Virus record (IMG/VR): IMGVR_UViG_3300045988_137032
Span: 1-64,000 of that record
DNA: 64,000 bases
From: a virus
Strand: one strand, 5' to 3'
Under the pieces are notes generated by a model. That model worked only from the letters and a program-made list of their open reading frames with translations. It ran no database searches and was not told the origin of the DNA. Positions 13,770 through 59,468 of this stretch are shown here, one piece after another (the stretch's first letter is position 1; each line of letters opens with the position of its first letter). Made by a program: the position numbers and the translations under genes.

Positions 13770-13783
13770 CCACTAGAAAACAA

Positions 13784-13859: not shown

Positions 13860-15725
13860 ATGGGATTTAATAAAGGTGACAAAGTTACTTGTAGCGCGGA
13901 ACGAGATTACAACGGTGTCCATCTCGCAAGTTTCGTGAGACGTAACACATATGAAGTCATGCAAGTTGATGGTGACCGAGTTGTCATCGGTCGTAATGGT
14001 GTAGTTACAGCTGCCGTTAGTGCTAGTCAACTTAATAACCCAGCGGCAGCAGTCACTCAAACTAAGGCAGATTCACCTGCCCTTCCTACAGGTACTGCAA
14101 CATCACAAAATACATCAGTTCTTAATACAGCAGGTAATTTCGCACAGAATTATCTTACCACACTGGCAAGAGGATTTGATGCTAAAATCACAAATATGAT
14201 TGATAACTATGGTGAGGATATTACCAAGTATTCAATGAGACTATTTGGTATTCCTCATCAGTTTACTCAGTATTGTGATTATAGAACCTATTCTGTTTCT
14301 AATAAGCCGAAGTGCCAGCTTATTGGTAGAACCTTCATTGAGAATATCATGCTGGAAGCACCTGTTGTAACGATTCTTCCTGGTAAGCCTGTATATCTTC
14401 CTGCAAAGAAAGGTGAGAAAAAGGAAGGTGTTACAACCTCTTTGATTTCAGCGGCAAATGATTCTATTGCATTTGCAGCATATGCTCAAACACAGGATGA
14501 ACAGAAAACAGCTGATAAGGTTCGATATTATGACTTTGAGCAGGATTACACGAACTACATGCGATATGTAAATATCATGTGTCAGGTTGCAGCTGCATTC
14601 CTTGACCTTGATACAGAAAATATCGATGGTAGTACAGCGCTCACCACATATATGTGGGAGAACTATAAGTGGACTGCTGATCAGTATAGTACTGCATCTG
14701 GCAATATGTTTAATGCAGCAAAGAATCTTGTTGGTAAAACCATTTCGAAGATTTCTGCTGGACTTAAGAGCATTATCGGCGGCGGTGGTACAAAGGTTAC
14801 TGCATTGGACCAGAAGATGGATCCTGACAAAGAAGAGGGCATCCTTGCGAATGTCGAATATCTTTTGACTCAGATGCATTTCGTCCAATTCTATATTGAC
14901 TCATCTTCTAGTTCTACCGAAAATAGTTCAAACCAGACAAGTTCTTCGAAGCTTGAAGGCATGTTTGATTCTGCAAATGACGTCTTAAAAGAATTTGCAT
15001 TCATTGCAAACTCTGGCGGTTTAACGCAATCTCAGATGCAGGAATACACTAGCGGAGCTATGGGAGCTCTTAGTGGAATGCTGAATGATTCCAATAGCTA
15101 CGTCGGTGGCGTCATTGGACGTCTTCTTGGATCAGCAGGTAATGTGATTCGTGGTAATACCATGATTTTCCCGAAGATTTACCAGAGATCAGAGTACTCA
15201 AAGTCATATAATATTACTGTGGATCTTCGTAGTCCTTATGGTAATAAACTTAGTTTCTATCTGAATATCCTCGTTCCTCTCTTCCATCTGATGTGTCTTG
15301 CACTTCCGAAACAGGAAACTGCAAACACTTATGGCTCCCCGTTCCTTGTTAAAGCTTACTATCCCGGTGTCTTCTCTTGTAATTTAGGCATCGTACAGAG
15401 TCTTAGTATCGAACGTGCTCCCAATTCAGATTGGTCCGTAGACGGGTATCCTATGGAAATTAAAGTTAGTCTGAGTATCGAAGATCTTTATTCTGATCTA
15501 ACTATGACTCCAGCAGGCTCTACCCTGCTTTTCCTTGCTAACTCCAGTTTGATTGAATTCATTGCAACAAACTGCGGAATTAGCTTAATCACTCCTCAGC
15601 TTTCAAACCGTGTTAAATACGTTACTGCAATTTTTGAATCTGCTGCAAAGAATGCAAAAACAAATGTTGCAAATGCCGTGTTTAATAGTCTTGAAAGCAA
15701 GATTTCATCTTTTACAAGAACGTGA
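13860..15725 (+). CDS. hypothetical virion-associated protein with N-terminal SH3-like domain
   Basis: 621-aa ORF with an AAGAGGTGG RBS. The N-terminus KGDKVTCSAERDYNGVHLASFVRRNTYEVMQVDGDRVVIG is paralogous to the N-terminus of 22831..24609(-). Confidence 0.8.
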   Translation: MGFNKGDKVTCSAERDYNGVHLASFVRRNTYEVMQVDGDRVVIGRNGVVTAAVSASQLNNPAAAVTQTKADSPALPTGTATSQNTSVLNTAGNFAQNYLTTLARGFDAKITNMIDNYGEDITKYSMRLFGIPHQFTQYCDYRTYSVSNKPKCQLIGRTFIENIMLEAPVVTILPGKPVYLPAKKGEKKEGVTTSLISAANDSIAFAAYAQTQDEQKTADKVRYYDFEQDYTNYMRYVNIMCQVAAAFLDLDTENIDGSTALTTYMWENYKWTADQYSTASGNMFNAAKNLVGKTISKISAGLKSIIGGGGTKVTALDQKMDPDKEEGILANVEYLLTQMHFVQFYIDSSSSSTENSSNQTSSSKLEGMFDSANDVLKEFAFIANSGGLTQSQMQEYTSGAMGALSGMLNDSNSYVGGVIGRLLGSAGNVIRGNTMIFPKIYQRSEYSKSYNITVDLRSPYGNKLSFYLNILVPLFHLMCLALPKQETANTYGSPFLVKAYYPGVFSCNLGIVQSLSIERAPNSDWSVDGYPMEIKVSLSIEDLYSDLTMTPAGSTLLFLANSSLIEFIATNCGISLITPQLSNRVKYVTAIFESAAKNAKTNVANAVFNSLESKISSFTRT

Positions 15726-15735
15726 GAATCCTTTT

Positions 15736-16338
15736 ATGAAGAAGATAGAGAGAGACTATTTGTCGGAATATGGAAATATCCCGAAAGACGAGGCTGCACG
15801 ATTCGATTATATGCTCGATACTCTTAATCTTAAACTGAGAAAACCTCAGATAATGGATCGGATGTATCATATACGTAACATACATTGGAGCAGTTTGGAT
15901 TTCGTGATTTATCTCGTACCGACTGCAACTCCTAGACCTAGATTCTCTTCTCTCACCAATACATTTTATGTGGCTGGTGCGAAAGTAAATCGAGATATCT
16001 TTAGGGAGTTTGCTCGGAAAAACAAATTGCCTCATATCGTAACTCAATGCAAATTTGAGTGTACTTCATATTTACCCATTCCGAAATCTATGAAAAAAGT
16101 AGATGTTGTATTGGCTGAACTTGGATTGGTTCGCCCTATTACAAAACCGGATTGGGATAACCTCGGAAAGACGTATTCCGACATGATTCAATCAACGTTG
16201 TTGGAAGATGACTCGCTTATCATTGAGGGAATAAGCAGAAAGTACTATTCTTTAAAGCCTAGAATAGAAATCCATATAGAATGGGCGGATGAGCATGATA
16301 GCTCGTTCAATTATAATAAAATACGAAAGAAGGGTTAA
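15736..16338 (+). CDS. rusA: RusA-like Holliday junction resolvase
   Basis: Start moved to the ATG at 15736. The motif PITKPDWDNLGKTYSDMIQSTLLEDDSLIIEGISRKYYS..PRIEIHIEW fits the RusA KPD-x-DN..D..DD signature. Confidence 0.6.
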   Translation: MKKIERDYLSEYGNIPKDEAARFDYMLDTLNLKLRKPQIMDRMYHIRNIHWSSLDFVIYLVPTATPRPRFSSLTNTFYVAGAKVNRDIFREFARKNKLPHIVTQCKFECTSYLPIPKSMKKVDVVLAELGLVRPITKPDWDNLGKTYSDMIQSTLLEDDSLIIEGISRKYYSLKPRIEIHIEWADEHDSSFNYNKIRKKG

Positions 16339-17527: not shown

Positions 17528-18001
17528 ATGATCTATGATTCCATTCTTGAAGCATCATCATCTGATTTAATTTCATCACATGAAGCTGCTAAGCTAATTG
17601 GTTTTATTTCTGAAAAGAAGAAAACTGATTTCCGTGGTGGAGATGTTGTGATCTTCGGTAAGAAGACAAAGATCAAACGTGTTAGTGCATATTACAATGA
17701 CACAATGACTGAAGCCGATGCTAAGAGATATATGCTTAAACTTAGATCAAGTGCATCGGAGATTGAAAAAAGCGTACTCAATTATATCAGATCGAATATG
17801 AAAGATTTTTCAGAATATGATTCTACGCTTCCTAATGTCAATGATGCTATTGGATTAGGTTTCCATGTAAAACCTCAGTATGTTATGGCTTCAAAGAATA
17901 CCGTTGTACTGATGTGTACTTGTAAATGGGATATCGAGCATGGTATCGGTATTCAGTTTATTCCTAGTATTAAAGTAGCTCCGCAGGATATTTTCCTGTA
18001 A
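17528..18001 (+). CDS. hypothetical protein carrying the shared N-terminal leader motif
   Basis: 157-aa ORF that starts 3 nt after the upstream stop. The N-terminal motif is SILEASSSDLISSHEAAKLIG (see findings). Confidence 0.75.
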   Translation: MIYDSILEASSSDLISSHEAAKLIGFISEKKKTDFRGGDVVIFGKKTKIKRVSAYYNDTMTEADAKRYMLKLRSSASEIEKSVLNYIRSNMKDFSEYDSTLPNVNDAIGLGFHVKPQYVMASKNTVVLMCTCKWDIEHGIGIQFIPSIKVAPQDIFL

Positions 18002-18005
18002 ATAA

Positions 18006-18070
18006 TTTTATGGTGATGCTTGATAGTAATGCATTAGTTAATAATGCTCTATCAAACATCACCATAAAAA
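18006..18070. terminator. long imperfect hairpin / bidirectional terminator
   Basis: TTTTATGGTGATGcTTGATAG pairs with CTATCAAaCATCACCATAAAAA. Confidence 0.6.
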
Positions 18071-18111
18071 TTTAAGCATTTGCGCTATTTAAGAAAGGAG
18101 CTTAAAATAAA

Positions 18112-18381
18112 ATGTCTAAAACTTTTCTGAATGAAGCTGCTAAATATACAGATACGATCATGAATTCCATTAAATCGATTCTTGACAAGAATGATATCTC
18201 TTACAAAGAAATTGATAAGATGAATTTGATCGTATCTTTTACAGAGGACAATTCAATTACTTCCGATGCTATCCGAGCTTTAACATCTGAAGAGATTGGA
18301 TGTGAGCCAAATGTGTTCGATGCTCTGATTGACATCGTTGATGTGAATGGGAAAGTTTACATCCGGCAGATTTTAAAGTAA
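18112..18381 (+). CDS. hypothetical small protein
   Basis: 89-aa ORF with an AAAGGAG RBS, followed by the bidirectional terminator at 18383..18433. Confidence 0.7.
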   Translation: MSKTFLNEAAKYTDTIMNSIKSILDKNDISYKEIDKMNLIVSFTEDNSITSDAIRALTSEEIGCEPNVFDALIDIVDVNGKVYIRQILK

Positions 18382-18382
18382 A

Positions 18383-18433
18383 AAAGACAGGCTTATGGAA
18401 CTATGATGTTTCCATAAGCCTGTCTTTATTTTT
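18383..18433. terminator. bidirectional terminator between convergent genes
   Basis: 18-bp perfect stem AAAGACAGGCTTATGGAA/TTCCATAAGCCTGTCTTT flanked by A- and T-runs. Confidence 0.85.
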
Positions 18434-18435
18434 GC

Positions 18436-19350
18436 TTAATACTTGCCGTTGATATAATCGTATGCCATTTCCTTTACGGACTGGAGATTAAAATCTTCCA
18501 GCTTGAGTGCCTTCAGCATAGCAAGCTTCGTGTACTCATGAACCGCTTCAGTAAAGATAGCAGACGGATCAGCGCCATCCATTTTCTCGGCCTTATTCAT
18601 CATGACGGCTTCAAACAGAGAAGGCTGATAAACCTTCGGTTGTCTGCAAGACTTAAAGTTTGTGATCTTAGCCATGGTAGATTCCATGGAAGCATCATCC
18701 ATAACTTTATCATCGGCTGCGAGTGTATCCTGAATGTCAGTCTTATACTGATCTTCAGCAGCAGCCTTCTGCTTTTCGTCATTGATGGCGTTAGCTACAT
18801 TGTTCTGGATGATTTCACTGATTTCGTCACCGCTCAGTTTACCAGTAATAGCATCGACGCTATCGTTCATTGCAGCAGGATCGTAATTGAGACTCATAAC
18901 ATCAATGTGGCCGACGTTATTCTTCTTCTTGTACGAAACTGCCTTTGAGCAAGCCTTTTCAGCTTCTGTTACGATGGTTTTCAGAACTCCTGAATTAGTA
19001 CGCTTCAGTGCCTCACGGACATAATATTCCGTCGGTTTACCGTCAGTACGCTTAGCAATAAAGTTATGAATTTCACCACCAACGTCTGACGGAGAAAGAT
19101 TCTTGTCAGGATCGTTGTAAGGCAGAGCATTCTGATAAATTTTGCCGAGTACTGTATCGATACAAACGGACTTGCCGTCTTCAGCAGCTTTAAGTGCCAT
19201 TGCATTCTGATGTGTGGGACTAGCTTTGAAGGCAGCCATGCCATCAATCTTTTCCTTTGCATCTTTCTTGGCCTGAATGAAATCGAGAACCTTAGCTTCT
19301 CGTTCGTCTAATCCAGCAGTATCCAGTGTTGCCTGAATTGCAGAATTCAT
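18436..19350 (-). CDS. hypothetical protein (acidic, helical; scaffold-like composition)
   Basis: 304-aa ORF with an AAAGGTGG RBS on the minus strand. It is convergent with 18112..18381. Confidence 0.8.
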   Translation of the reverse strand: MNSAIQATLDTAGLDEREAKVLDFIQAKKDAKEKIDGMAAFKASPTHQNAMALKAAEDGKSVCIDTVLGKIYQNALPYNDPDKNLSPSDVGGEIHNFIAKRTDGKPTEYYVREALKRTNSGVLKTIVTEAEKACSKAVSYKKKNNVGHIDVMSLNYDPAAMNDSVDAITGKLSGDEISEIIQNNVANAINDEKQKAAAEDQYKTDIQDTLAADDKVMDDASMESTMAKITNFKSCRQPKVYQPSLFEAVMMNKAEKMDGADPSAIFTEAVHEYTKLAMLKALKLEDFNLQSVKEMAYDYINGKY

Positions 19351-19404
19351 AATTCATAGCCACCTTTCATTATATATTTTAAAAATGTAATAGTAGTCAG
19401 AAAC

Positions 19405-22400
19405 TTAACTTAATGTTTTTACGACCTCGACGTTAAGAACGATGTCATCCGTGGACACAACCAGGACTTCCGGCACATATTCACGAAGTTCATCCTTAGT
19501 AAGATCATTCAGGTCAGTAACCTTCATACATACGGTCTGATACTTCGGGTCGTAATCATTGATACCAGTAAATCTCAAATGGTGGACAGACGGGAAGTTA
19601 TTCTCGATTGCCTTAATCATATTCGAGATATACAGATCGTTTGTACCAGAAGAATTAACCTTCTCAACGAATTCCTTAATGAAGCTCTTGATTTCAGTTG
19701 CAACGCTTGTTGCAGTGACACCATCAATCAGTTTCACATCATACGAAATTCCGATATTAACACGATCGATGAGTTCCTGATTATCACCAATGTAGTAGTT
19801 GTTACTACGGCCATAAGTGTTGTAGAACTTCACATCAAGGTTTGTGTTATTACGCAGTCTCGGGTTTGTCTCTTCCAGATAACGATAGTTATTCGTAACG
19901 TAAGTGATGAACGTATCGAAAGTATCCGCGTTATTAACCATATCTGCTTTCACCATAGGAAGCAAAGACATATTGCACATAACGCAATCTTCAGTACCAT
20001 CATCATTCAAAGAACCACGGGTGAATGTTACGGTGCTACGCATCATATTGAGAGGCTCAATAAACGTAAGACCTTCATCATCCGTAGAGTAGACATTGAC
20101 GATGGAATACTGGTCGATATCACCACCGGTAGTGGGATTACCCTTCTCATCACGAGGACGATAATAGTCGAAGAACTTCGGCTGTACGTCGCCACGACGA
20201 TCTCTCCAGCAGATGTAGATATTCACCTTGCAGTTTTCAATAGGAATGAAACTAACAGGTGATTCACCTTCTTTTACGAGATTCATGACTGCAAATGTCT
20301 TATTCACAGTAACGTAGTTATTCGTGATAATCTTACTGGAGAATGTTACCATGGAAGTATCTCCGGTATCAACTGCGGTCGGGAACAACTCAAGGTAACC
20401 AATCTCAGTCTTATTATCCATGAACTCAGCGAAGATTCTAACATCATTCAGCTTACCAGTCTTTTCGTTCTTATACCCATTCATGGTATAAACGTAGCCA
20501 TCCGGAAGCTCAATAGACGGAATGATACTCATGGAAATATCAAAGCTACGACTCTGTTCGAGTCTACGATTAAGCTTCAACTTTGATGTGATGAACTGAG
20601 ATGTGATCTCATCATTTGCACTCACGTATTCCAGTGTAGCAATCTGATTCTGGATATTCTTGTAGAGTCCAATCAGATTCGGATTCTTACTCATAGAAAT
20701 CAGGAACGGATTCGTATAGATGAATTCATATCCTTCTTTCTTCTCCAGTTTACCAGAGAGAACGTCAGGACGAATATCCTCAAAGTCAACACGACTCTCA
20801 AGCTTATTACCATCCCAATCATAGCGGGAATAACCGTTTGTATCCTGGACGTAGTATTGGCCGACATTTCGCATGTTATACATGGAAATATCCTTCATAT
20901 ACTTTTCATATCCAATATACTTATCTCCGATCATTGCACCGTCTTCATCACAAGGATAATAGACATTGTGGCTGAGAACTTTAAGGGTTACAGTACCATT
21001 CTCGATGAGAGTGGTCAGAGTATCAGTGGAGATGTCACCATCAATCTTTTCATCAGATGCACTGTAATGAGTACCATCAGACAGATAGTAAGTGCCATCA
21101 ATATCAATGTAATGCTTTACATTAATCTTCTCAGTACGATACCGGACGATTTTCTGCACAAGGGAAAGGCTATTGATCAAGCCATCTTCCTTTGTCATAT
21201 CTTCATCAGTATACTGAGAATAGCTGATGATATTACCATTGAAATCACACTGACGCCAATAGCCGTCATCATCCTTCATGAAGAAGTTGTCAACTCTACG
21301 ATCTTTTCCAGAACCAACGTAATGCTCCCAGATATTATCAGTAAACCAAATCTCTCCCGTTTCATAACGATCCTTGAAGAGATGATCAACGATTGTCTTG
21401 TTGTAAGACATGTATCGAGGAAGCAATCTTACGGTATTTCTGCTATCACCATCATATACAAACAGATGGCCAGGATTCAGAGTATAGACGTTGCTATTCT
21501 CAGCAAGGTCAAACTCATTGCCATTGATATTCAAGAAGAGTGTATTGGTAGGATAGATGAAGTCGTCTCTCTTAATCAGCAAGAATGCTGAGAAGAGACG
21601 CTCCGTGATATCATCTCGACGCTTCAAAACGAAGATCTCATTTCCGTAGCGGTACTTGTAGTTGTAGAAGTATTCACTAATATCGCTTTCCGTAGAAAGC
21701 TCAGTAGCAGTAGAGAATGCTTCAACGGTAAGAGCTTGAAGTGCATCCAGTGACAGTTTTCCAGCGCCACCAGCACAAGGAGATACTGTCTTACCAGCAA
21801 TGATCATCTTTTCATTATAATCAAAGCGTTCGTTATTCATCTGGAATCCGACATTCTTACCATTGTACTCTTCGAAGTTACCATCTGCACCCTTTGTAGT
21901 ATAAGTGATAACTTTAATCTCAGAGTTAAAGTCAGGCTGGAAGTAGCCATCCTTCGGAGAGAATGTAATTTCCAGAGTCTGGTCATCCTTTAACCGATAA
22001 TAACAGAAAGGCCTCTTAATAGGAAGTGAGAATTTCACTTTCTTCTCAAGAGCTGTATATTCACTATCGGTAGGAGACTTATAGAAGATATCAAATCCAG
22101 CCAGAGTATCAGAGAAATCAAATTCCAGCACGGGATAATTGATCTTCGTATTTGTGATGACAGATTCACTCATCTCAGTGCGTTCTACCTGATGGCAAGT
22201 GATCTCAAGCATCAGAAGTCCATTACCAACTTTACGAAGCTTCAGATAAGGATTCGTAATATCGGAAATAGAATTCTTCACAGACATATCATACTTTGCA
22301 CTGTAGATATATTCTGCTTCATAAGTACCAGTGTTATTCTTTCGCTTTTCTTCAATGATGATATCGTAGTCAGGAGTAAACGGAATATCTTCTACGGTAA

Positions 22401-22809
22401 TAATGGTTTCTTTTGCAATGTAGAAGGTACGAACTCCGTTTGCACTATTTTCACTACCATAATCATGAATATCAGACTGCTGTAAAAGAATGACAAAGGT
22501 ACATTCACCAGCTTTACCAAAAGAATTATCGAGCTGATGGATAGCTGCATGGGAATAAATAGATTCAGGAATAACTGCTTTATTTGGGAAAGCCTCATTG
22601 ATCAAAACGGATGCGGTATTCATTGCATCTTCGATAGCATTGGCATCCTGCTCCAGAGTAAAACCAAGCTCACCGACGTTCAATGCTGAGAGAGTTGCAT
22701 CTCCAAAGTATTTTTCACCGAGTGTGGTTAAAGCAGTATTTTTAATGGCATAGCCATCTGTATAGTCACGATCAACAACGATCTTTTCGACCGTAGATAC
22801 TTTAGCCAT
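19405..22809 (-). CDS. large hypothetical structural protein (1134 aa)
   Basis: Long ORF with a GAAAGGAG RBS. It starts 22 nt after the stop of 22831..24609. I recognise no motif. Confidence 0.85.
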   Translation of the reverse strand: MAKVSTVEKIVVDRDYTDGYAIKNTALTTLGEKYFGDATLSALNVGELGFTLEQDANAIEDAMNTASVLINEAFPNKAVIPESIYSHAAIHQLDNSFGKAGECTFVILLQQSDIHDYGSENSANGVRTFYIAKETIITVEDIPFTPDYDIIIEEKRKNNTGTYEAEYIYSAKYDMSVKNSISDITNPYLKLRKVGNGLLMLEITCHQVERTEMSESVITNTKINYPVLEFDFSDTLAGFDIFYKSPTDSEYTALEKKVKFSLPIKRPFCYYRLKDDQTLEITFSPKDGYFQPDFNSEIKVITYTTKGADGNFEEYNGKNVGFQMNNERFDYNEKMIIAGKTVSPCAGGAGKLSLDALQALTVEAFSTATELSTESDISEYFYNYKYRYGNEIFVLKRRDDITERLFSAFLLIKRDDFIYPTNTLFLNINGNEFDLAENSNVYTLNPGHLFVYDGDSRNTVRLLPRYMSYNKTIVDHLFKDRYETGEIWFTDNIWEHYVGSGKDRRVDNFFMKDDDGYWRQCDFNGNIISYSQYTDEDMTKEDGLINSLSLVQKIVRYRTEKINVKHYIDIDGTYYLSDGTHYSASDEKIDGDISTDTLTTLIENGTVTLKVLSHNVYYPCDEDGAMIGDKYIGYEKYMKDISMYNMRNVGQYYVQDTNGYSRYDWDGNKLESRVDFEDIRPDVLSGKLEKKEGYEFIYTNPFLISMSKNPNLIGLYKNIQNQIATLEYVSANDEITSQFITSKLKLNRRLEQSRSFDISMSIIPSIELPDGYVYTMNGYKNEKTGKLNDVRIFAEFMDNKTEIGYLELFPTAVDTGDTSMVTFSSKIITNNYVTVNKTFAVMNLVKEGESPVSFIPIENCKVNIYICWRDRRGDVQPKFFDYYRPRDEKGNPTTGGDIDQYSIVNVYSTDDEGLTFIEPLNMMRSTVTFTRGSLNDDGTEDCVMCNMSLLPMVKADMVNNADTFDTFITYVTNNYRYLEETNPRLRNNTNLDVKFYNTYGRSNNYYIGDNQELIDRVNIGISYDVKLIDGVTATSVATEIKSFIKEFVEKVNSSGTNDLYISNMIKAIENNFPSVHHLRFTGINDYDPKYQTVCMKVTDLNDLTKDELREYVPEVLVVSTDDIVLNVEVVKTLS

Positions 22810-22830
22810 GGGTTAATCTCCTTTCCGTTA

Positions 22831-24609
22831 TTATTCTGCTTTATGGAAGCGGAGTTTAAATGTGTAAGGAAGGTTACCGTCATTACGGTTACCACGGAAG
22901 GTTTCAATGAATGGAGTACCGGCCCAAGTATATCCAGTACCGAGTACAGAGCTCTGATACGTATTCACGTACTTCCAGTTACGTTTCCATCCATGAGTAT
23001 TGAACTCAACCAATGACAGAGGGTTGAAATCTTCCTTCCAAGAATATTTATAGCTAATGGTATATTCCGGGTTACTAATACGCTGACTATCATCAAACAT
23101 CAAGTTTGAAGACGGAGTCTTTGTAGGGAATACACCATAGTACTTACTCCAGAAGATAATCGTTTCTCCATCTTCTGCGGTAAGAATATAGTAAAGACAT
23201 GTGGGATAGTCAAGAATCTTATTCTTGACGTAATTAATATCAGGCCACACTTTACCACGGTAAACATGACTGATATAGTCAGTCCACAGTTTATGCAAGT
23301 GATAAATATGAAGATACTTATCATCGGTGTATTTGATATTAATTTCTCCAGCAGCTTTACTCTTGATATTATTCTTACCGTATGCAACTTTGTGACCTGT
23401 CAGTGCATCACCGTAGGATTCATCTTCAACGTATTCATCAGAAGTTTCAAACGATTTTGCTTTGTTTGACAGGAACATCATGAATTCATGATCATATCCA
23501 GCTTTGCCCTGAGTTAATTCACGGAGCAACTCAGGAGCATGCTGTAGTGCATAATAGTATTCAGACAGATTCTTTAAGTTGTCTGCAAGAGTAGGCGATG
23601 CATTTGCACCAGTAGATCCATCTGCATAAATATTACAGTCAGGTCTTACAAAGAATACATGACCGAATGCTTTTGTTAAAGCATCATTCGGATTTTGTAT
23701 TTTGTAGCGGTTGTAATATTTCGTATATTGACGGAATAATTGTTGGGGATTCATAAGATCCAGATTTACTGACCTACGAATTTCCTCCATGTCAGTGTAA
23801 TTCTTCTTATCATCGAATTCGGTTCCTGTATAGTAATCATATCGGTAAAGACCGTAATTCTTTGCACTCTTAGAAGAATTCTTACTGGGACTAGGAGAAG
23901 ATTTTAACTTCGGCCATACTCCAATCTTATGTCCATTTTCATCAAGAATTTGAGTCTGATATACTTCAGGAGCATTTCTATCCAAGTTATCAATCTGCTT
24001 TTTTGTCATCTGGTAACGAAGATCACCATATCGAAGCATATTCATAACCTTGTAATATTCAGCAGACTGCACTTCTTTGTAGGTATAATCAGCAGCAGAA
24101 GAAGCATTGTATCGTTTGCTGAGATACATAACTTTACTAGCTCCATCCAATGTACCACTAAAGAGATCTGATACATATCCACCGAGCTTATTAAAGAGCC
24201 TTGATGCTGCACCTGATAATAGAGTCATACCAATATTCATGAGACCATTGGTAAGCTTTTTACCTGCGCTAGATCCCATGAAGGTTTTTACTTTATTACC
24301 AGCATTCACCAATCCATTCGTTAGATTACCAAGTAAGCTAGTTTCAGCTACAGCATACTGGTCATCCATTGAAACACCTACGATTTTTTGTGGCATCAAT
24401 GTGGCAGGATTAAATCGAGTCAGAGTTTCAATATCGACTGTAGTAATTGCTTTTCCGCGTAAACCAAGAACGACATAGTTGTCTGGATAATTTTGACCAC
24501 CAATCTGTAAGACATCATACAGGTTGTCTTGTACAAAAGAGGCAAGGTGAACACCATTTACATCTTTAGATGCAGATGTACTCACCTTGTCACCAACCTT
24601 GATCTTCAT
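22831..24609 (-). CDS. hypothetical virion-associated protein with N-terminal SH3-like domain
   Basis: 592-aa ORF with a GAAAGGAG RBS. The N-terminus VGDKVSTSASKDVNGVHLASFVQDNLYDVLQIGG is paralogous to that of 13860..15725. Confidence 0.8.
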   Translation of the reverse strand: MKIKVGDKVSTSASKDVNGVHLASFVQDNLYDVLQIGGQNYPDNYVVLGLRGKAITTVDIETLTRFNPATLMPQKIVGVSMDDQYAVAETSLLGNLTNGLVNAGNKVKTFMGSSAGKKLTNGLMNIGMTLLSGAASRLFNKLGGYVSDLFSGTLDGASKVMYLSKRYNASSAADYTYKEVQSAEYYKVMNMLRYGDLRYQMTKKQIDNLDRNAPEVYQTQILDENGHKIGVWPKLKSSPSPSKNSSKSAKNYGLYRYDYYTGTEFDDKKNYTDMEEIRRSVNLDLMNPQQLFRQYTKYYNRYKIQNPNDALTKAFGHVFFVRPDCNIYADGSTGANASPTLADNLKNLSEYYYALQHAPELLRELTQGKAGYDHEFMMFLSNKAKSFETSDEYVEDESYGDALTGHKVAYGKNNIKSKAAGEINIKYTDDKYLHIYHLHKLWTDYISHVYRGKVWPDINYVKNKILDYPTCLYYILTAEDGETIIFWSKYYGVFPTKTPSSNLMFDDSQRISNPEYTISYKYSWKEDFNPLSLVEFNTHGWKRNWKYVNTYQSSVLGTGYTWAGTPFIETFRGNRNDGNLPYTFKLRFHKAE

Positions 24610-24757
24610 ACGAAGTCGCCACTCCTTTCTTTTCTAATTCTGGGTTATCCTCGTAATAGCTTACCCTATTGTTTTTTGGTACTATTTCTAGTGATACTAT
24701 AGAAAGTACATGTATTTAACGTCATATAATATTTCTTAATTGGAAAGGAGAATAGGT

Positions 24758-25042
24758 GTGACCAATAAACACGGTAAACGCAAAAGAGTAAAAACACGTG
24801 ATATGATGTTGATCATTTGCTCAGCAATGGTCATCATCTATACACTCGTAGATATCACTCTTGGATTTGTCGGTCTTAAGACGGGTGCACAGATTCAGCT
24901 TGATAGCACACTTACTTCCGAAGTATTCGGTTTTGCAAAGTGGGTTATCACAACTGGTGCTGGCATTACTGTCGCTAAGACACTGAAGGGAAATACCAAT
25001 AGTGATGAAACAGAATATCCTACCGATGAAGAACCCGACTAA
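24758..25042 (+). CDS. small two-TM membrane protein (holin-like topology)
   Basis: The GTG start at 24758 lies 7 nt after GAAAGGAG. The protein has a basic N-terminus, two hydrophobic helices (MMLIICSAMVIIYTLVDITLGFV and FAKWVITTGAGITVA) and an acidic C-terminus. The holin function is only inferred from this topology. Confidence 0.6.
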   Translation: MTNKHGKRKRVKTRDMMLIICSAMVIIYTLVDITLGFVGLKTGAQIQLDSTLTSEVFGFAKWVITTGAGITVAKTLKGNTNSDETEYPTDEEPD

Positions 25043-25079
25043 AATATAAAAAAAATAAAGAAATGTGAGGTACCTTAAA

Positions 25080-25685
25080 ATGACTAATAATCTGCAGATT
25101 GCTATTCTTGAAGCCGCGCATGACGGTGTCCTGTATAACCATGAGGCTATCGATCTGATCAATCAGACTTACGTCAGCGAGGGTGTGAACCTGGATGCTC
25201 GTCGTGAGTACAAGGATCGTAACAAGGCTGCTCGTGCACTGGTTAAGCAGTTCAAGGCGGCTAAGAAGGCTGGTAAGTTCAATGAGGCCAATACCTGCCT
25301 GGATAAGGCCATCAAGATTCTGGATGATCTTCAGGACAGCCTGAAGGATTACCAGGATATGAGCGGTTTTGGTTCCTTCGTCTTCTCTCTGTTCGTCCCC
25401 ACTCTGTGCGACTTCGTTCCTCTGTATGGCCTGAGCACCATGTATCTGAACCAGTTCGATACCTTCGTCAAGGCATTCAAGAAGTCCTGCTTTGGTAAGG
25501 GTGCTGAGATCAGCGACCTGAACCAGTATGTGTCTCGTCTGAACATGTACACTGGCGAGTTTAAGAAGTCTCTGCAACGTCAGAAGGCTGAGCTGCGGAA
25601 GTATCGTGATACAATCGCTAAGGAGTCCGTTGATGATGAAGTTACTCTGGATGACCTGCTGGCAGAGATGACTGATCTGGTCTAA
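25080..25685 (+). CDS. hypothetical helical membrane protein with shared N-terminal leader motif
   Basis: Start moved to the ATG at 25080. The N-terminal motif is AILEAAHDGVLYNHEAIDLIN and the central hydrophobic segment is FGSFVFSLFVPTLCDFVPLYGL. Codon bias is C/G-ending. Confidence 0.75.
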   Translation: MTNNLQIAILEAAHDGVLYNHEAIDLINQTYVSEGVNLDARREYKDRNKAARALVKQFKAAKKAGKFNEANTCLDKAIKILDDLQDSLKDYQDMSGFGSFVFSLFVPTLCDFVPLYGLSTMYLNQFDTFVKAFKKSCFGKGAEISDLNQYVSRLNMYTGEFKKSLQRQKAELRKYRDTIAKESVDDEVTLDDLLAEMTDLV

Positions 25686-25703
25686 TTGTGGAGGTGGACA
25701 TCA

Positions 25704-27305
25704 ATGAGTGTTGTTTCTGATGTCCTGATGGAAGCACTGGATAATCGTGATATTACTGCTGATGAGGCAGCGTTTATCATGAGGAATTATTATTCTGAAG
25801 GTGCTGTTCGTGATGCCGTTCATAATATTTCTCGTGTCATGGACGCTTCTCGTGAAGATAAAGCATCCACCATCGAGCAGCTGAAGTCCAATAAGGGTTT
25901 CAGCGATGCTGAAAAGAACGTGAAGTCTTATTGCGCTAAAGCGTATAAGACTATGACTAAGTATAGCAGAACGATTGCTATCAAAGATAATGCCAATGGT
26001 AAGGCTGATATGCAGAATATTATCAATGGTATTAATAGCGCTATGACAAAGTATAATAGCGCAAAGAAGGCAGCAGAGAAATCTGATCATGCCGATATTA
26101 CTCCGGTTGTCAATAAGATTATCAATAACCTGAAGAGTGCGCAGAAGTGCTTTGCTTCTGATGGTACTCCAAATAAGGAAGCCCTGAAGAAGCTGGCAAG
26201 TAATACTCGTATGGAGTATGGTAATCTTGGTGCCGTCAATGTTGACGCAAAGGCGCCGAAGCCGAAGGAAAAGGAATCTACCAATGAGAGTGCTCTTATC
26301 TCTTTTGATAATGATGTGCTCTCTGAGAGTTTCTTCAGTGATATGAAGAATAAGATTTCTAAGAAACATGATACTCAGGATAAGGCATCCAAGAATACTG
26401 GTGCTGAAAAGTCCCCCAAGAAGAAAGCCGATCCGATTGGTGGTATCGTGTCTAAAGTAATCAATATTCGTACGGCTGCGAATGGTGCGATGGGACGGAA
26501 GATTACTGCATTGAAGAAGAAGTCTGATGACTTTGAGTCTCAGGATGATATCAAGCAGGTTAATCGATCCATGACTGGCTATGCTGAAGATGTTAAGTCT
26601 AACATCGATAAGCTTGGCTCCATGCCTAATGGTAAGAAGTATATTCCTGGTCTTACTAAGATCATGAATTACATCAAGAACGCCATCTCTTCTAAGAGCC
26701 CCAACGATATTGAGACCTTCCGTGTTAATATGATGGGTCAGACAATTGCTCTGGTAGAATCATATCAGATGGAAAGCGTCAATACCTTCCTTGAGGCAGT
26801 TCCGTTTGTACCTACCATGGATGCTACGAATCGGATGGAGGCAATTGTCCAGCGGTTCAACTATCTTTCTGCATCTTATCGTACGCATATGAATGCTGGT
26901 GATAAGAGCGCAGCAAAGAAAGACCTGAAGGAAATGCAGGAAACCATCCATACGGCGGCTGGTATTATCGATGATGCGAACAAAAATTCTACCTTCGTCG
27001 AAACTACTCTTATTAACCTCTTATTCGATGGCATTGCGATTGCAGGTATTGCAATCAGTGTGATTAACGCACCTTGGATGGGTAGTTTTGGCGTTGTCAT
27101 GGCAGGCATGTATGGCGCATATGGTGGTATCTTTAGTGGTGGTCAGATTATGAATGTAATCAATGATTATAAAAAGACCGGTAAGTTTAATTATCGGGCC
27201 ACTAATGCTGCTCTCGGCATCCTTGCTCTTGAACTCAATAAGATGGAAAACATCCTTGGTCGCATGACCGTTGAGCTCGATAAAGCATATGCTGCATCCA
27301 AGTAA
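25704..27305 (+). CDS. hypothetical helical membrane protein with shared N-terminal leader motif
   Basis: The ATG at 25704 follows GGAGGTGG. The N-terminal motif is VLMEALDNRDITADEAAFIMR. Hydrophobic segments (LLFDGIAIAGIAISVI and GVVMAGMYGAYGGIFSGG) lie near the C-terminus. The terminator at 27330..27372 follows. Confidence 0.8.
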   Translation: MSVVSDVLMEALDNRDITADEAAFIMRNYYSEGAVRDAVHNISRVMDASREDKASTIEQLKSNKGFSDAEKNVKSYCAKAYKTMTKYSRTIAIKDNANGKADMQNIINGINSAMTKYNSAKKAAEKSDHADITPVVNKIINNLKSAQKCFASDGTPNKEALKKLASNTRMEYGNLGAVNVDAKAPKPKEKESTNESALISFDNDVLSESFFSDMKNKISKKHDTQDKASKNTGAEKSPKKKADPIGGIVSKVINIRTAANGAMGRKITALKKKSDDFESQDDIKQVNRSMTGYAEDVKSNIDKLGSMPNGKKYIPGLTKIMNYIKNAISSKSPNDIETFRVNMMGQTIALVESYQMESVNTFLEAVPFVPTMDATNRMEAIVQRFNYLSASYRTHMNAGDKSAAKKDLKEMQETIHTAAGIIDDANKNSTFVETTLINLLFDGIAIAGIAISVINAPWMGSFGVVMAGMYGAYGGIFSGGQIMNVINDYKKTGKFNYRATNAALGILALELNKMENILGRMTVELDKAYAASK

Positions 27306-27329
27306 CTTGTCTCAAAAGACATAAAATAT

Positions 27330-27372
27330 TCCCACTACATCAGATGGAATACTGATGTAGTGGGAAATATTT
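27330..27372 (+). terminator. intrinsic terminator
   Basis: 14-bp stem TCCCACTACATCAG/CTGATGTAGTGGGA followed by a T-rich tail. Confidence 0.7.
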
Positions 27373-27525
27373 TACTTAAAACGAATTTGTTATTAGATTG
27401 GTTGATAAACGGATTTTATAGAAATTGCATTTGTTAGTTTTTCAATTTCAGAAGGAATCGAAGTAACCTAAATATGATCGGCTCGGTATCTTCCAATCAT
27501 AAGTGGGGAAATGTAAGCAATCCTT

Positions 27526-27683
27526 CTCCGGCCATCTAGGTCTCCAGACAATACTGACATTTCTCTTATCATTCCAATATCGCTATATTTTATCTACGGC
27601 CATATAGGTCTCCGAAATATATCGAGTAAAGGTCTGAAGCTACTGAAAGATCCAAATCATTGTCTACGGCCATCTAGGTCTCG
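27526..27683. repeat. three spaced ~20-bp direct repeats (iteron-like)
   Basis: The copies are CTCCGGCCATCTAGGTCTCC (27526..27545), CTACGGCCATATAGGTCTCC (27594..27613) and CTACGGCCATCTAGGTCTCG (27664..27683). Centre-to-centre spacing is 68 and 70 nt. They lie in an ORF-free gap. Confidence 0.8.
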
Positions 27684-27715
27684 GATGACTCAGTTCAATC
27701 AACGCATAATAAATA

Positions 27716-27752
27716 GTTGAGCTGATGTAGTATTAGTCCACATCAGCTCAAC
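27716..27752 (-). terminator. intrinsic terminator of 27792..28070
   Basis: 13-bp stem GTTGAGCTGATGT/ACATCAGCTCAAC with a T-rich tail on the minus strand. Confidence 0.7.
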
Positions 27753-27791
27753 AAAACGTTTTTGCAAACGTCATGGACGCCAATGTGGTAA

Positions 27792-28070
27792 TTACATACC
27801 AGCCAGCTTGTCATCCACTTTCTGCAGAAGCTCAACACGCTCTTCAGCAGTAATAGAGCCGTTCATCTCAGCCTCGTAGATCTTGCAGCGCATAGCATCT
27901 GCCTTCTCTTCGACTGACTCTTCAGGCTCAGCATCTTCCGTAACGGAAGAGGAATCATCATTGGTCATATCGCTGTCAGTGTCTTCCAGGCATGCCAGCA
28001 TCAGATCCTTGGTGACTTCATCAATCTCGCCGCTCTTCGCAGCTTCGAAAATAGCGTTCTTGATTTTCAT
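27792..28070 (-). CDS. small acidic protein with shared N-terminal leader motif
   Basis: Start moved to the ATG at 28070 (MKIKNAIFEAAKSGEIDEV), which has GAAAGGAG 8 nt upstream. The terminator at 27716..27752 lies downstream. Confidence 0.7.
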   Translation of the reverse strand: MKIKNAIFEAAKSGEIDEVTKDLMLACLEDTDSDMTNDDSSSVTEDAEPEESVEEKADAMRCKIYEAEMNGSITAEERVELLQKVDDKLAGM

Positions 28071-28220
28071 AAGATGATATCTCCTTTCAGATATTTTAGG
28101 ATAACGTATAAGATCTATTCTTACACGTAATATCATGAGATTAATATAATGTAACAGTACTCCAAAAAACATTTCCTTAAGCTTACTAGGGAATTACATA
28201 GTAAAGGAGTGAGAATAACT

Positions 28221-29732
28221 GTGAAATATTCATTGCTGGATCAAATAGTAATGGAGAGCGATTACAACTCCATGCGTTTGAATCACTTCATGCAGTGTAA
28301 TATCGATAGTTTTGCTTTTGAGACAGCAGATATCTTCATGGATGCTGACTCAGGAGTCATTACAGAGCATGACGCAAATATTCTCTATGAGAATGCGTTT
28401 ACTGATATCGTTGATAAGCTGATGGCATTTATCCAGAAAATTATCGATAATATTGCAAAATTCTTCAATGAATTAAAGATCCGTATCTTCGGTAGTCCGA
28501 AGGAAAAGGAAAAACTTAAGAAGTTGAAGGAAGCAGCAAAGGCTGCTAGTAATAAGGGCATTAAGGGCAATGCTGTTACGAAGAAAGTAAAGGTCTTTAA
28601 GATCAAGCGTAACAAGAAAGCTCTTGATGCTTACATCAAAGAAATGAGCAAGCTTGAGCGTAGAATGCTGAATCTGAAATATCAGGCCGCGCAGGATTCT
28701 ACTAGAGTTTCTGATATTCCTGTTATTGGTAAGAAAATTGCATCTGATAATACAACTGCATCTACGATGATCGAATATAATGAACTTACGAAAGCTATTG
28801 ATGAATGCAATCGTAAGTATGATAAAATCGTTAAGTCGAACGCAGAAGTAGTTGAGCTTGCTCTCAATGATGCAATCCGTTTCTCTGATAAGGATCTGGA
28901 TTCTATTGGCCTTGATCTTGATGAGATTAAGAAAGGCTCTGATAGAGTTCTTGCTAAGTTTAAGTCTGATGCAAAAGGCGTTAAGACAAAGCAGCAAGCA
29001 AATCTGATTCAGAAAGCAGTACAGAGTATTGAAACTCGTGTTCGTAAGAGCATGAAAGACGGAGCTGAATATCAGACAAAGAATTCAACTGCTCTTTTTG
29101 CTTTCTTTACTGCTGCTGGCGTTATTGCTGGTGGTTCTGCTATTCTTAAGTTTACTGGTAAAGACCAGGTAATTAAAGATGCTATCTCCGATAAGATTGG
29201 TGACGGTGATATCATTAACAAGGGCATTGATATAGCAAACGCAAAATATGCTGAAGTATCAACAGCAATTAATACCAGTCAAAAGAAGAAAAAACTTAGT
29301 AATGCTAAGCCAGATGCTGCTGGTTACCACATATTGCACATGGCCGTTCTTAATTGGATTAATACCAATTTCCCTCTTAGTGCAGGAATTCCGAAAAACG
29401 CAAAAGATTATCTTGAAGCTGTTACGGATACATCTAAAGTCACTAAAATGTGGCAATTGCCGTTTTCTATTCCAAATGGTATGATGCTTAGAATTTGTGG
29501 CTATATCACCAATGATAATGGCCCTGTTGCTAGCATGAAAGTTAAAGCTTTTTTAAATTCACATCCGGAAATGCAAATTAAGTTTGAATCTGTAAGTGAT
29601 GGCGGTAAACTCACACAAGCAGGTTTACGTAAGTTCTTTAATTATTATGCGACGAATATTGCAGGTGTTAAAGATGTTATTAAATTTTCCGAAGAGATGA
29701 AAGCTTGTTGGAAAAATCAAGAAGAAGAATAA
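28221..29732 (+). CDS. hypothetical helical membrane protein
   Basis: The likely start is the GTG at 28221, 11 nt after AAAGGAG; the track start at 28209 overlaps the RBS. The hydrophobic segment is ALFAFFTAAGVIAGGSAILKF. Confidence 0.75.
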   Translation: MKYSLLDQIVMESDYNSMRLNHFMQCNIDSFAFETADIFMDADSGVITEHDANILYENAFTDIVDKLMAFIQKIIDNIAKFFNELKIRIFGSPKEKEKLKKLKEAAKAASNKGIKGNAVTKKVKVFKIKRNKKALDAYIKEMSKLERRMLNLKYQAAQDSTRVSDIPVIGKKIASDNTTASTMIEYNELTKAIDECNRKYDKIVKSNAEVVELALNDAIRFSDKDLDSIGLDLDEIKKGSDRVLAKFKSDAKGVKTKQQANLIQKAVQSIETRVRKSMKDGAEYQTKNSTALFAFFTAAGVIAGGSAILKFTGKDQVIKDAISDKIGDGDIINKGIDIANAKYAEVSTAINTSQKKKKLSNAKPDAAGYHILHMAVLNWINTNFPLSAGIPKNAKDYLEAVTDTSKVTKMWQLPFSIPNGMMLRICGYITNDNGPVASMKVKAFLNSHPEMQIKFESVSDGGKLTQAGLRKFFNYYATNIAGVKDVIKFSEEMKACWKNQEEE

Positions 29733-29757
29733 TTTTATTATAAAATCCCGCATTAGC

Positions 29758-29768
29758 GGGGGGGGGGG
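29758..29768 (+). repeat. G11 homopolymer tract
   Basis: Eleven consecutive G residues by direct count. The tract follows the CCCGC-ATTA-GCGGG hairpin (29747..29760) and lies 8 nt upstream of the ATG at 29777. Confidence 0.9.
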
Positions 29769-29776
29769 TAAATATC

Positions 29777-30448
29777 ATGATTAAAGAATCTATTCTCTCT
29801 GCAATGTCTTCAGATGTTATCACAGTAAATGAAGCGGCATCTCTTTTTGACATCTACGAGCGTGGTGGTATCACACGGGATTCAAAACATCGTATGGATA
29901 TCTACGAATATTTTAAGGATGCTACAGTTGAAGCTGCGCATCTTAAATTTGAATCCTATGAGGATAAGGCACTTTCTGCAAAAGCCAATGAAGATGTTAA
30001 GTATTCAGAAAATATGGAAGCTGTTGCTAAGAAGTTTGTAGCGGATTGTGATGAGATTCGTAATAAACTGATTGCTCAGAAGAAGAAACTGATTTCTGTA
30101 GCAAAATCTGATCCAAATGCATTCATGGATGATATTAAACTTACAGATGAAGGTATGGATAAGAATCTTCCTGAGAATGCATCTTTTGGTGGAGACTGTG
30201 GTAAAACTCAGTCTCTTGCAATTTCTGCAGCAGAGAGTTTTGGCAAGCTTCTTGTCAAATGCTCTTCGCGTGGCTGTAAGAAGCTTACAAGCAAATGCGC
30301 AAGTTATGCACATTCTTGTATGTATGATGTTGATGATATGGCATACGTGATTCTCGAGTTTATTCGTAGAGGTGATAAAGGTCTTCCTGATCCCGATAAG
30401 AATACATGGCGTAATGGTAAAGAACCCGAATATAAATTCGAGTTCTAA
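29777..30448 (+). CDS. hypothetical protein with shared N-terminal leader motif
   Basis: 223-aa ORF with the N-terminal motif SILSAMSSDVITVNEAASLFD. Instead of a normal SD it is preceded by an 11-G homopolymer (29758..29768), 8 nt upstream of the ATG. Confidence 0.75.
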   Translation: MIKESILSAMSSDVITVNEAASLFDIYERGGITRDSKHRMDIYEYFKDATVEAAHLKFESYEDKALSAKANEDVKYSENMEAVAKKFVADCDEIRNKLIAQKKKLISVAKSDPNAFMDDIKLTDEGMDKNLPENASFGGDCGKTQSLAISAAESFGKLLVKCSSRGCKKLTSKCASYAHSCMYDVDDMAYVILEFIRRGDKGLPDPDKNTWRNGKEPEYKFEF

Positions 30449-42126: not shown

Positions 42127-42212
42127 TTTTTTACTAACACGCTCAGTGAATGATATGTTATATACTTGGGCACGTTAGTATAACTGAATTTTTTGAGAGG
42201 AGAGACCATTCA

Positions 42213-45959: not shown

Positions 45960-46023
45960 GTATTGATACTGCCTAAAAACAAACTCTTAAGTCGATAACT
46001 CTAAAGTAAAGGAGATGAGACAA

Positions 46024-59354: not shown

Positions 59355-59468
59355 TCTATCTGACGGAAGACAAACACCTTATTAAATGCTATGATATACT
59401 GAAGATGGCAATCCGGCTATCTTCATTTTATATCCATAGAAAATATACTTTAAGGAGTGATTTTTCAT

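Follow-up and report, generated by a model that had tools for sequence, protein, structure and literature searches.

In bacteriophage T4, the internal proteins IPI-III and Alt carry a capsid-targeting sequence (CTS), a short N-terminal leader that is shared by unrelated proteins and is subject to gp21 processing (PMC5694885). Prohead proteases of the phiKZ type have an S/A/G-x-E specificity (PMC5694885, PMC10052503). In SPN3US, gp53 and gp54 are identical over their N-terminal 15 residues, and gp47 has both a propeptide and a transmembrane helix (PMC5694885). Another short module, SHOCT, comprises about 30 residues with two amphipathic helices, a strongly conserved Gly and Glu and no indels (PMC3581485). 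Here we analyse a stretch of viral DNA of 64,000 nucleotides (IMG/VR virus record IMGVR_UViG_3300045988_137032, positions 1 to 64,000; hereafter the window), in which a first, sequence-only reading had noted five otherwise unrelated proteins with a common N-terminal leader of about 21 residues. The leader is part of a longer unit with two predicted helices, which recurs at C-termini in a family of phage proteins and which, judged from sequence, is very probably a real modular tag.

Results

Five leaders on unrelated proteins

The five leaders lie where the sequence-only reading had placed them: they start at residues 5, 8, 7, 5 and 6 of their proteins, and the 21-mers align without gaps. A Shine-Dalgarno sequence precedes each of the five open reading frames (ORFs). 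Carriers are named below by the first coordinate of their genes or, for 27792-28070, as the 92-aa protein.

17540..17602, plus strand: leader SILEASSSDLISSHEAAKLIG, residues 5-25 of the 157-aa protein 17528-18001
25101..25163, plus strand: leader AILEAAHDGVLYNHEAIDLIN, residues 8-28 of the 201-aa protein 25080-25685
25722..25784, plus strand: leader VLMEALDNRDITADEAAFIMR, residues 7-27 of the 533-aa protein 25704-27305
29789..29851, plus strand: leader SILSAMSSDVITVNEAASLFD, residues 5-25 of the 223-aa protein 29777-30448
27993..28055, minus strand: leader AIFEAAKSGEIDEVTKDLMLA, N-terminal copy, residues 6-26 of the 92-aa protein 27792-28070

Pairwise identity between the leaders is only 3-12 of 21 residues (33-59% for the DNA), and the likeness is therefore one of pattern and not of recent duplication. 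When the first 35 residues of 46 window proteins were compared by all-versus-all local alignment, the ten pairs among the five leaders ranked between 2 and 94 of 1035. In a permutation test, in which the leader set was one picked after the fact, their summed score was reached by only 3 of 200,000 random sets of five and their minimum by none; the few random sets scoring above the leaders all include the true paralog pair 13860/22831. Leave-one-out profile hidden Markov models (HMMs) recovered the leaders of 17528 (E=0.001) and 29777 (E=0.025) as top non-training match and those of 25080 and 27792 marginally, in second place, while the 25704 leader was not recovered.

The description of the carriers as otherwise unrelated holds, since the bodies stripped of their leaders show no BLAST similarity; hhalign gave one weak hint, between 25080 and the C-terminal third of 25704 (probability 15%). 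The length of about 21 residues fits the aligned 21-mers but is too short for the whole likeness, which runs on for some 10 residues to a conserved Glu (Y-x-S-E-G), and the conserved unit comprises about 30-35 residues. PHROGs, Pfam and NCBIfam gave no match to the carrier proteins of the window except DUF6985 (PF22481), which covers residues 39-156 of 17528 (E=2.9e-10; 41.3 bits versus a cut-off of 24.5) and leaves the leader outside the domain. An AlphaFold2 model of 17528 was of low confidence (pLDDT 39). The 25080 body is helical with one hydrophobic segment (residues 97-118), and 25704 has a transmembrane-like segment at residues 436-467. Altogether three carriers have a transmembrane-like helix; no hydrophobic segment was found in 17528, 29777 and the 92-aa protein.

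Searches of the window proteins with the leader HMMs, as the sequence-only reading had suggested, found extra copies, one near the C-terminus of the 92-aa protein and one internal; a third site is a weak candidate.

27822..27884, minus strand: second copy KIYEAEMNGSITAEERVELLQ in the 92-aa protein 27792-28070, at residues 63-83 and thus close to its C-terminus
28326..28388, plus strand: divergent internal copy ADIFMDADSGVITEHDANILY in the protein 28221/28251-29732; its loop is shorter by one residue
19279..19341, minus strand: weak candidate AIQATLDTAGLDEREAKVLDF, residues 4-24 of the 304-aa protein 18436-19350

The internal copy lies about 35-45 residues into its protein and was steadily the top non-training match of the leader HMMs (E=0.05-0.1). 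Its carrier, a paralog of 46015-46860 (hhalign probability 95.8%), contains a transmembrane-like segment. Together with 8930-9967 of the related contig L007 and 12278-14040 of L009, a 221-kb relative, these two form one family of long helical proteins with a single C-terminal transmembrane-like helix and an N-terminal pattern of its own (…YFLEFDL… / …LEAEM-x-[FW]NN…). The N-termini of g216 and g217 of phage AR9 look similar to this family, but the profile comparison was not significant.

The candidate in 18436-19350 fits the register L-D-x-x-E-A-x-x-L by eye and has an N-terminal pair score with 17528 of 32; it falls under the HMM threshold, shows conservation in L007 and was excluded as a member. 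The N-terminus of 59457 (MANNMKQVLLKKKIEGVIYD) scored 41 against 25080 and was rejected as a chance match because helix 2 is absent. The 59457-60539 product is a 360-aa Ala-rich protein with tandem AASDEATRAQAAEKTLTDNLSA-like repeats and a late-type promoter upstream at 59373, and is probably a fibrous or coiled-coil structural protein.

Leaders in related phages

The window covers 64 kb of the roughly 260-kb genome of an uncultured jumbo phage that is kin to the AR9/PBS1, Staphylococcus S6 and phiR1-37 branch of phiKZ-like phages. Its genes include those of a split multisubunit RNA polymerase (42150-43907 and 49155-51221), a primase and a DNA polymerase of family B, and several for proteins of 'virion structural protein' PHROGs. 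The 1134-aa protein 19405-22809 matches only jumbo phages of Staphylococcus, Listeria, Bacillus (AR9/PBS1) and Yersinia (phiR1-37), at 25-28% identity. The nearest relatives are contigs of 250-271 kb from human-gut metagenomes.

Loss of the leader in orthologs of related phages would have spoken against a common signal; four relatives retain the leaders. Within the clade the leaders are 81-95% identical, compared with 56-68% for the rest of each protein. For example, the leader of 17528 is 86% identical to that in L002 and the rest 68%, and the corresponding values for 25080 and its counterpart in L001 are 95% and 58%. A second, syntenic clade is more distant, with 70% identity in the 1134-aa protein and 55% in the 592-aa protein, and retains the pattern in three families. 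Here the 25080 homolog has 428 aa and begins with MATNLDFVIMEAAQSGLLSNDEAVSMF, a protein of 292-297 aa with both terminal copies takes the place of the 92-aa protein, and the 28251 homolog retains the internal copy, which reads ELYTEAASHIISDHETSILYE in L007. The 17528 and 29777 genes are absent from this clade.

For 25704 we found 31 homologs, each at least 54% identical, on contigs of 260-271 kb; in these the whole N-terminal 190 residues are conserved. Word-seeded homolog searches with 25704 and 17528 returned close orthologs only. The 29777 gene occupies a variable accessory locus: it is absent in L001, L002 and L007, and L005 has a 118-aa gene instead. The L005 protein (YISALTNVKITDADGHDL) is motif-like by eye and was not counted. 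One leader on two different bodies is seen in P0046, whose N-terminus corresponds to the first 47 residues of the 29777 ortholog P0044 (45 of 47 identical) and is followed by an unrelated body of 240 residues.

Proteins with the motif at both termini

When 1.84 billion representative proteins were searched exhaustively by HMMER, a profile of six instances yielded 31 matches at E<=1e-3, which fall into three classes. The first consists of orthologs with the leader at residue 1 and the second of phage proteins with the motif at both termini. To the third belong bacterial proteins with SHOCT-like, DUF1707, DUF2680, SPP1_GP23-1 or GA-like repeats and, among eukaryotes, plakins, where the matches lie among plectin repeats. 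Because of this third class the leader profile cannot be regarded as specific to one homologous family.

A search with the alignment of the second class yielded 113 proteins, with an N-type copy in 98, a C-type copy in 96 and both in 82. As marks of the bi-terminal family we took an N-type motif at residues ~4-30 together with a C-type motif no more than about 30 residues from the C-terminus. The two ends hardly vary between members (N-type MTNLELAICEAENSGEIDLDTRDMML…, C-type …ESVLEEIYEAELCGDITPEERMALIDYMD). Between them lie middles of about 30 to about 350 residues, which include acidic linkers, Lys/Glu-rich helices and sometimes transmembrane segments (P0047, P0056). The sequence M-T-N-(N)-L-x-x-x-I-x-E-A-x-x-x-G is common to the N-type motif, 25080 and the 428-aa protein of L007, and forms the best link between the leaders and this family. 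Some family members carry the N-terminal tag alone on another body; in P0167, residues 1-34 form the tag and are followed by a complete HAD-IA hydrolase domain.

Within one contig (of 201, 221 or 241 kb) the family is represented by 3-5 paralogs. On the 221-kb contig (L009) they cluster beside 28251/46015-like genes and a primase gene. The same contig carries, at 5633-8863, a gene for the anaerobic ribonucleotide reductase NrdD that is split by an intein with a LAGLIDADG homing-endonuclease domain (precomputed Pfam matches). No relative of the family was found in 185,579 species-representative bacterial and archaeal genomes (GTDB), which thus give no clue to the host, and no Pfam or PHROG model matches it. 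Megablast and tblastn searches with the region, 25704, 28251 and the bi-terminal protein P0102 gave no match among 50,697 isolated phages.

The 92-aa protein of the window belongs to this family. Independent HMMs, built only from distant bi-terminal members, detected both its N-type (E=4.5e-4) and its C-type copy (E=4.9e-11).

Predicted structure and likeness to known modules

With the family alignment, AlphaFold2 predicted two confident helix-loop-helix hairpins for the 92-aa protein (pLDDT 83-94). The N-terminal hairpin has helices at residues 2-13 and 18-35 (pLDDT 83-89), the C-terminal one at 53-69 and 75-91 (pLDDT 89-94), and the linker at 33-49 is disordered in the model. A Foldseek search of the PDB and BFVD with this model gave no significant match; the best viral fold matches, not significant, were Bacillus-phage proteins of about 40 aa and a few SHOCT-annotated phage proteins.

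In a profile search of PDB sequences, residues 55-69 of T4 lysozyme (NGVITKDEAEKLFNQ) came out on top. This segment comprises the loop, Thr59 as N-cap and the start of a helix; with G-x-I-T-x-x-E-A, half of the motif is thus a helix-capping corner of a generic kind. The leader profile also matches T4 lysozyme as NGVITKDEAEKLF, as well as plectin repeats, GA-like domains and SHOCT-like repeats.

Two known kinds of module were compared with the unit. SHOCT and SHOCT-like domains (PF09851, PF08044 DUF1707, PF22746, PF10925 DUF2680), Phage_XkdX and SPP1 gp23.1 likewise consist of two amphipathic helices in about 28-30 residues with G-x-I-T-x-E-E; in the tag, two helices are predicted and the Glu is conserved. 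SHOCT is also found at the ends of many unrelated architectures, where its role is not known or is suspected to lie in binding or oligomerisation (PMC3581485). However, SHOCT stands mostly at C-termini, three of the five leaders do not keep the Gly, the copy in 28221-29732 has a deletion of one residue, and the cross-matches may reflect the generic capping motif. No leader and no whole protein matched any of these Pfam models; for PF09851, PF08044 and PF22746 the limits were E<=0.1 with whole proteins and E<=10 with isolated leaders. The spacing of the 12-residue EF-hand loop fits as well (Gly 6, Ile 8, Glu 12), most clearly in the C-type E-A-E-[LM]-N-G-x-I-T-x-E-E, and EF-hands act in pairs, which would suit a pairing of N-type and C-type copies. 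At positions 1, 3 and 5, however, the calcium ligands are not kept (Glu, Ala or Ser instead of Asp or Asn), such a pairing is unsupported by the model of the 92-aa protein, and the Pfam EF-hand models matched no window protein or leader. As these defining features failed, an assignment to SHOCT or EF-hand was rejected.

Gene order and promoters

The leader genes lie in a region with clear synteny to AR9. The AR9 gene for the virion protein g213 corresponds to 22831 (E=1e-27), g212 to 19405 and the RusA gene g208 to 15733-16338. Divergent from g213, AR9 encodes three virion proteins: g214, which has a transmembrane domain and is annotated as 'minor virion structural protein', g215 and g216. In the window this place, divergent from the g213 and g212 homologs 22831 and 19405, is occupied by 24758-25080-25704 and 28221-29732. 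The AR9 proteins at the syntenic place were confirmed as virion proteins by mass spectrometry, and some have transmembrane domains. An hhalign comparison of the 25080, 25704, 28251 and 46015 families with AR9 g214-g218 was negative, and the AR9 proteins have no leader. The following features surround the leader genes.

24707..24719, plus strand: TACA-N6-TAA promoter-like motif upstream of 24758-25080-25704, kept in the window phage, L001, L002, L005 and L007
24758..25042, plus strand: small two-transmembrane protein without tag, first gene of the 24758-25080-25704 block
28141..28153, minus strand: TACA-N6-TAA promoter-like motif upstream of 27792-28070, conserved in all relatives
28168..28179, plus strand: late motif AACA-N6-TA of the AR9 type (AAAAACATTTCCTTAAG) upstream of 28221-29732

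The 24758-25042 product has a holin-like layout with a charged C-terminal tail; it is 81-86% identical between the clades, in contrast to only 37-55% for the neighbouring genes. The 29777 gene begins 44 bp after 28221-29732, and 17528 closes a tightly packed block of co-oriented genes that begins with a late-type promoter at 13779.

Promoter motifs were assigned by means of the AR9 consensus sequences (PMC5312081). The early motif TTTATATATTATA occurs three times exactly in the window (33502 on the minus strand, 49021 and 61114), in no case before a leader gene. The late motif AACA-N6-TA shows a tenfold enrichment in intergenic DNA; it stands before virion genes, before the block 13860…17528 and before 28221-29732. 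Late or late-like motifs upstream together with the lack of the early motif indicate that the leader genes are probably non-early. Sites of the extended form AAAACA-N6-TAAG are found, for example, at 13779, 24673 (minus strand), 28168, 34368 (minus strand), 45978, 55251 and 61471. The TACA-N6-TAA variant is intergenic in eight of its ten occurrences. Its TTACA-N6-TAA form, found for example at 24707, 28153 (minus strand), 37381, 41180 and 49098, may mark another temporal class. This distant gut phage has thus retained promoter motifs of the AR9 type.

The convergent genes 25704-27305 and 27792-28070 are separated by a stretch of 486 bp without ORF (27306-27791). It contains three direct repeats of 26 nt (core CTACGGCCATCTAGGTCTC) at 27522, 27590 and 27660, spaced by 68-70 nt and flanked by two perfect hairpins (27329-27366 and 27716-27752), which are probably terminators. 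Gene callers put a 36-aa ORF in the equivalent stretch of relatives (L002 11765-11875). Rfam gave no match for 27306-27791 and nothing relevant within 17-31 kb.

A second, unrelated N-terminal module is encoded at 13860-13995 and, on the minus strand, at 24475-24609, on two paralogous virion proteins of 621 and 592 aa. It reads K-x-GDKV-x(5-6)-[RK]-D-x-NGVHLASFV…, has an SH3-like look and, with a score of 107, forms the top N-terminal pair of the window. The 592-aa protein matches AR9 virion protein g213 (E=1e-27), and a precomputed match of it to Phage_TTP_15 (tail tube) is weak. The ORF 2103-13769 (3888 aa) lies at the syntenic place of the AR9 tail tape-measure gene g204 (1925 aa); if it encodes the tape measure, it is about twice as long as g204.

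Discussion

The best overall explanation for these observations is, in our opinion, a mobile two-helix terminal docking or targeting tag, a reading that we put forward with some reserve. The tag comprises two predicted helices, of which helix 1 ([SA]-I-[LF]-E-A) is amphipathic; a short turn (G/D-x-[IL]-[TD]) leads to helix 2 (x-x-E-A-x-x-L-[IL]), and a conserved Glu stands at the end. That it serves docking or targeting at all appears rather probable. As a protein-protein docking element it could gather its carriers at one common partner or assembly late in infection, and the bi-terminal proteins, represented here by the 92-aa protein, might be bivalent adaptors or scaffold-like components. 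More weakly indicated is the place to which the carriers would be brought, perhaps the interior of the procapsid and virion; they would then be packaged or ejection proteins, several with a membrane-inserting helix. Synteny with AR9 virion genes, late-type promoters, the variable accessory locus and the SPN3US precedents make the virion the likeliest destination, an assignment that is nevertheless tentative. Removal of the tag by a prohead protease is possible, neither required nor supported by the data, and in our view unlikely.

Several results weigh against this explanation. The HMMs of the distant bi-terminal family match only the 92-aa protein in the window and miss the other four leaders, so that homology of all leaders is unproven and rests on the shared pattern. 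The core of the motif is the generic capping corner seen in T4 lysozyme, plectin and SHOCT-like repeats, and part of the likeness could be convergent. With a pTM of 0.38, the AlphaFold2 model does not support a packing of the two hairpins on each other, and speaks neither for nor against it. As to the destination, the tagged proteins have no sequence or profile similarity to any known packaged protein. The cluster of L009 is flanked by genes for NrdD, NrdG, dUTPase, DnaB and primase and by no structural genes, and 25080/25704 and 27792 have promoters of the TACA variant, which also stands before non-structural genes.

The T4 CTS, to which the sequence-only reading had compared the leader, follows the same logic of recruiting cargo into an assembling particle and has a hydrophobic-x-Glu at a similar distance from Met. 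What is borne out of that comparison is a modular tag on unrelated bodies, as in P0044/P0046, P0167 and the DUF6985 protein; the C-terminal and internal copies do not fit it. A leader of strict T4 type would bind the prohead core and be cut after Glu by the prohead protease. We consider this unlikely, even though it would agree with the N-terminal position on diverse bodies, with the synteny to AR9 virion proteins and with the variable accessory locus of 29777, which resembles the internal-protein loci of T-even phages; the latter are hypervariable accessory loci. Phages of the phiKZ type process many head proteins after Glu, and [IL]-x-E-A is conserved in helix 1 of four of the five leaders and present in the N-type and C-type motifs. 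A second conserved hydrophobic-x-E stands at the end of the tag (ISE-K, VSE-G, YSE-G, IYE-R, CLE-D and LYE-N, with the next residue after the hyphen). The proposed cleavage after Glu is, however, not in line with the specificity of the phiKZ and SPN3US proteases, which use S, A or G at P3, three positions ahead of the cut; the candidate sites have I, L, V or Y. In addition, 29777 has ILS at the first site, with Ser in place of Glu as in P0044 and P0046, and orthologs do not retain the S/A-x-E strings at the second Glu; a conserved S/A/G-x-E was not found. The T4 leader, of about 10-20 residues, is strictly N-terminal and is removed, whereas the conserved unit described here has two helices and about 30 residues, so that a cut after helix 1 would leave most of the tag on the mature protein. 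It also occurs internally and, in 96 of 113 family proteins, at the C-terminus, which this explanation does not account for. No sequence similarity exists between the T4 CTS and the leaders, and no prohead protease was recognised among the scanned ORFs of the window. The N-terminal propeptides of head and ejection proteins in phiKZ, 201phi2-1 and SPN3US, phages of the same broad lineage with multisubunit RNA polymerases, are comparable in that N-termini are conserved between diverged proteins, a transmembrane helix is present in some carriers, and the genes adjoin conserved virion genes. They differ in their cleavage sites (S/A/G-x-E or A-x-E) and in length, most having 111-254 residues. To our knowledge, the leader motif has not been reported in these three phages. 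The SPN3US proteins gp45, gp47, gp50, gp51, gp53 and gp54 show no similarity to window proteins, and gp49 matches 22831 weakly (E=0.002).

A docking module could also serve an assembly outside the virion, either a membrane-associated complex that acts in lysis control, in superinfection exclusion or in remodelling of the envelope, or a compartment for replication or nucleotide metabolism. The transmembrane-like segments of three carriers would agree with this, as would those of the bi-terminal relatives P0047 and P0056, the highly conserved, holin-like two-transmembrane protein that heads the operon, and the resemblance of the motif to SHOCT-like modules, XkdX and SPP1 gp23.1; in Bacillus phages, the genes for XkdX and gp23.1 lie at the boundary between tail and lysis genes. 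The neighbours of the L009 cluster, a carrier that is a HAD nucleotidase-like enzyme and the TACA-type promoters shared with non-structural genes point in the same direction. On the other hand, neither an endolysin gene nor another lysis gene was recognised in the neighbourhood, hydrophobic segments are lacking in 17528, 29777 and the 92-aa protein, and the AR9 proteins at the syntenic place are virion components. We regard an assembly of this kind as improbable. Finally, the leaders might have no common function and represent a generic corner (helix, Schellman/Gly turn, hydrophobic staple, Thr/Asp N-cap, x-x-Glu) that recurs in helical proteins and stands at several N-termini by chance. The matches to plectin, GA-like and SHOCT-like repeats and T4 lysozyme, identities down to 3 of 21 residues, the loss of 25704 in the leave-one-out analysis and the four leaders missed by the narrow family HMMs would be expected in this case. 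A chance origin is nevertheless quite improbable in the light of the fixed position, 4-8 residues from Met in the five window proteins and in 98 of 113 family proteins, the clustering of the leader genes within 13 kb and the permutation result (3 of 200,000). Moreover, the leaders are more conserved than the bodies, a near-identical 47-residue leader is found on unrelated bodies, and the pre-motif M-T-N-(N)-L-x-x-x-I-x-E-A is shared by 25080, the 428-aa protein of L007 and the N-type family.

The two-helix docking tag preferred here has parallels in other shells. In encapsulins and bacterial microcompartments, N- or C-terminal helical tags load diverse cargo into a protein shell, and the scaffold of P22 binds coat protein via a terminal helix-turn-helix. 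Encapsulin cargo-loading and microcompartment encapsulation peptides likewise combine a short terminal helical tag with a linker, an analogy only, without sequence relationship. It is conceivable, though doubtful, that N-type and C-type tags dock on each other or on a common receptor and thereby form a modular cargo-loading or scaffold network that brings arbitrary proteins to the procapsid or another phage compartment. If true, such a network would recruit enzymes, small inhibitor-like domains and membrane-inserting ejection proteins. In jumbo phages it would play the part of the T4 CTS or of encapsulin cargo-loading peptides, and it might lend itself to use as a programmable packaging tag.

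The tag, from uncultured AR9-like gut jumbo phages of 200-270 kb, is previously undescribed. Should its destination not be the capsid, it would still represent an uncharacterised, phage-restricted, multi-copy docking system for which Pfam and PHROG have no model. How giant phages choose the dozens of proteins that they package and inject, and what takes the place of the T4 scaffold and core, is largely unknown. A recognisable, transferable tag would make this question of cargo selection testable and would flag candidate injected effectors at variable loci, and it could serve to load foreign proteins, as the T4 CTS has.

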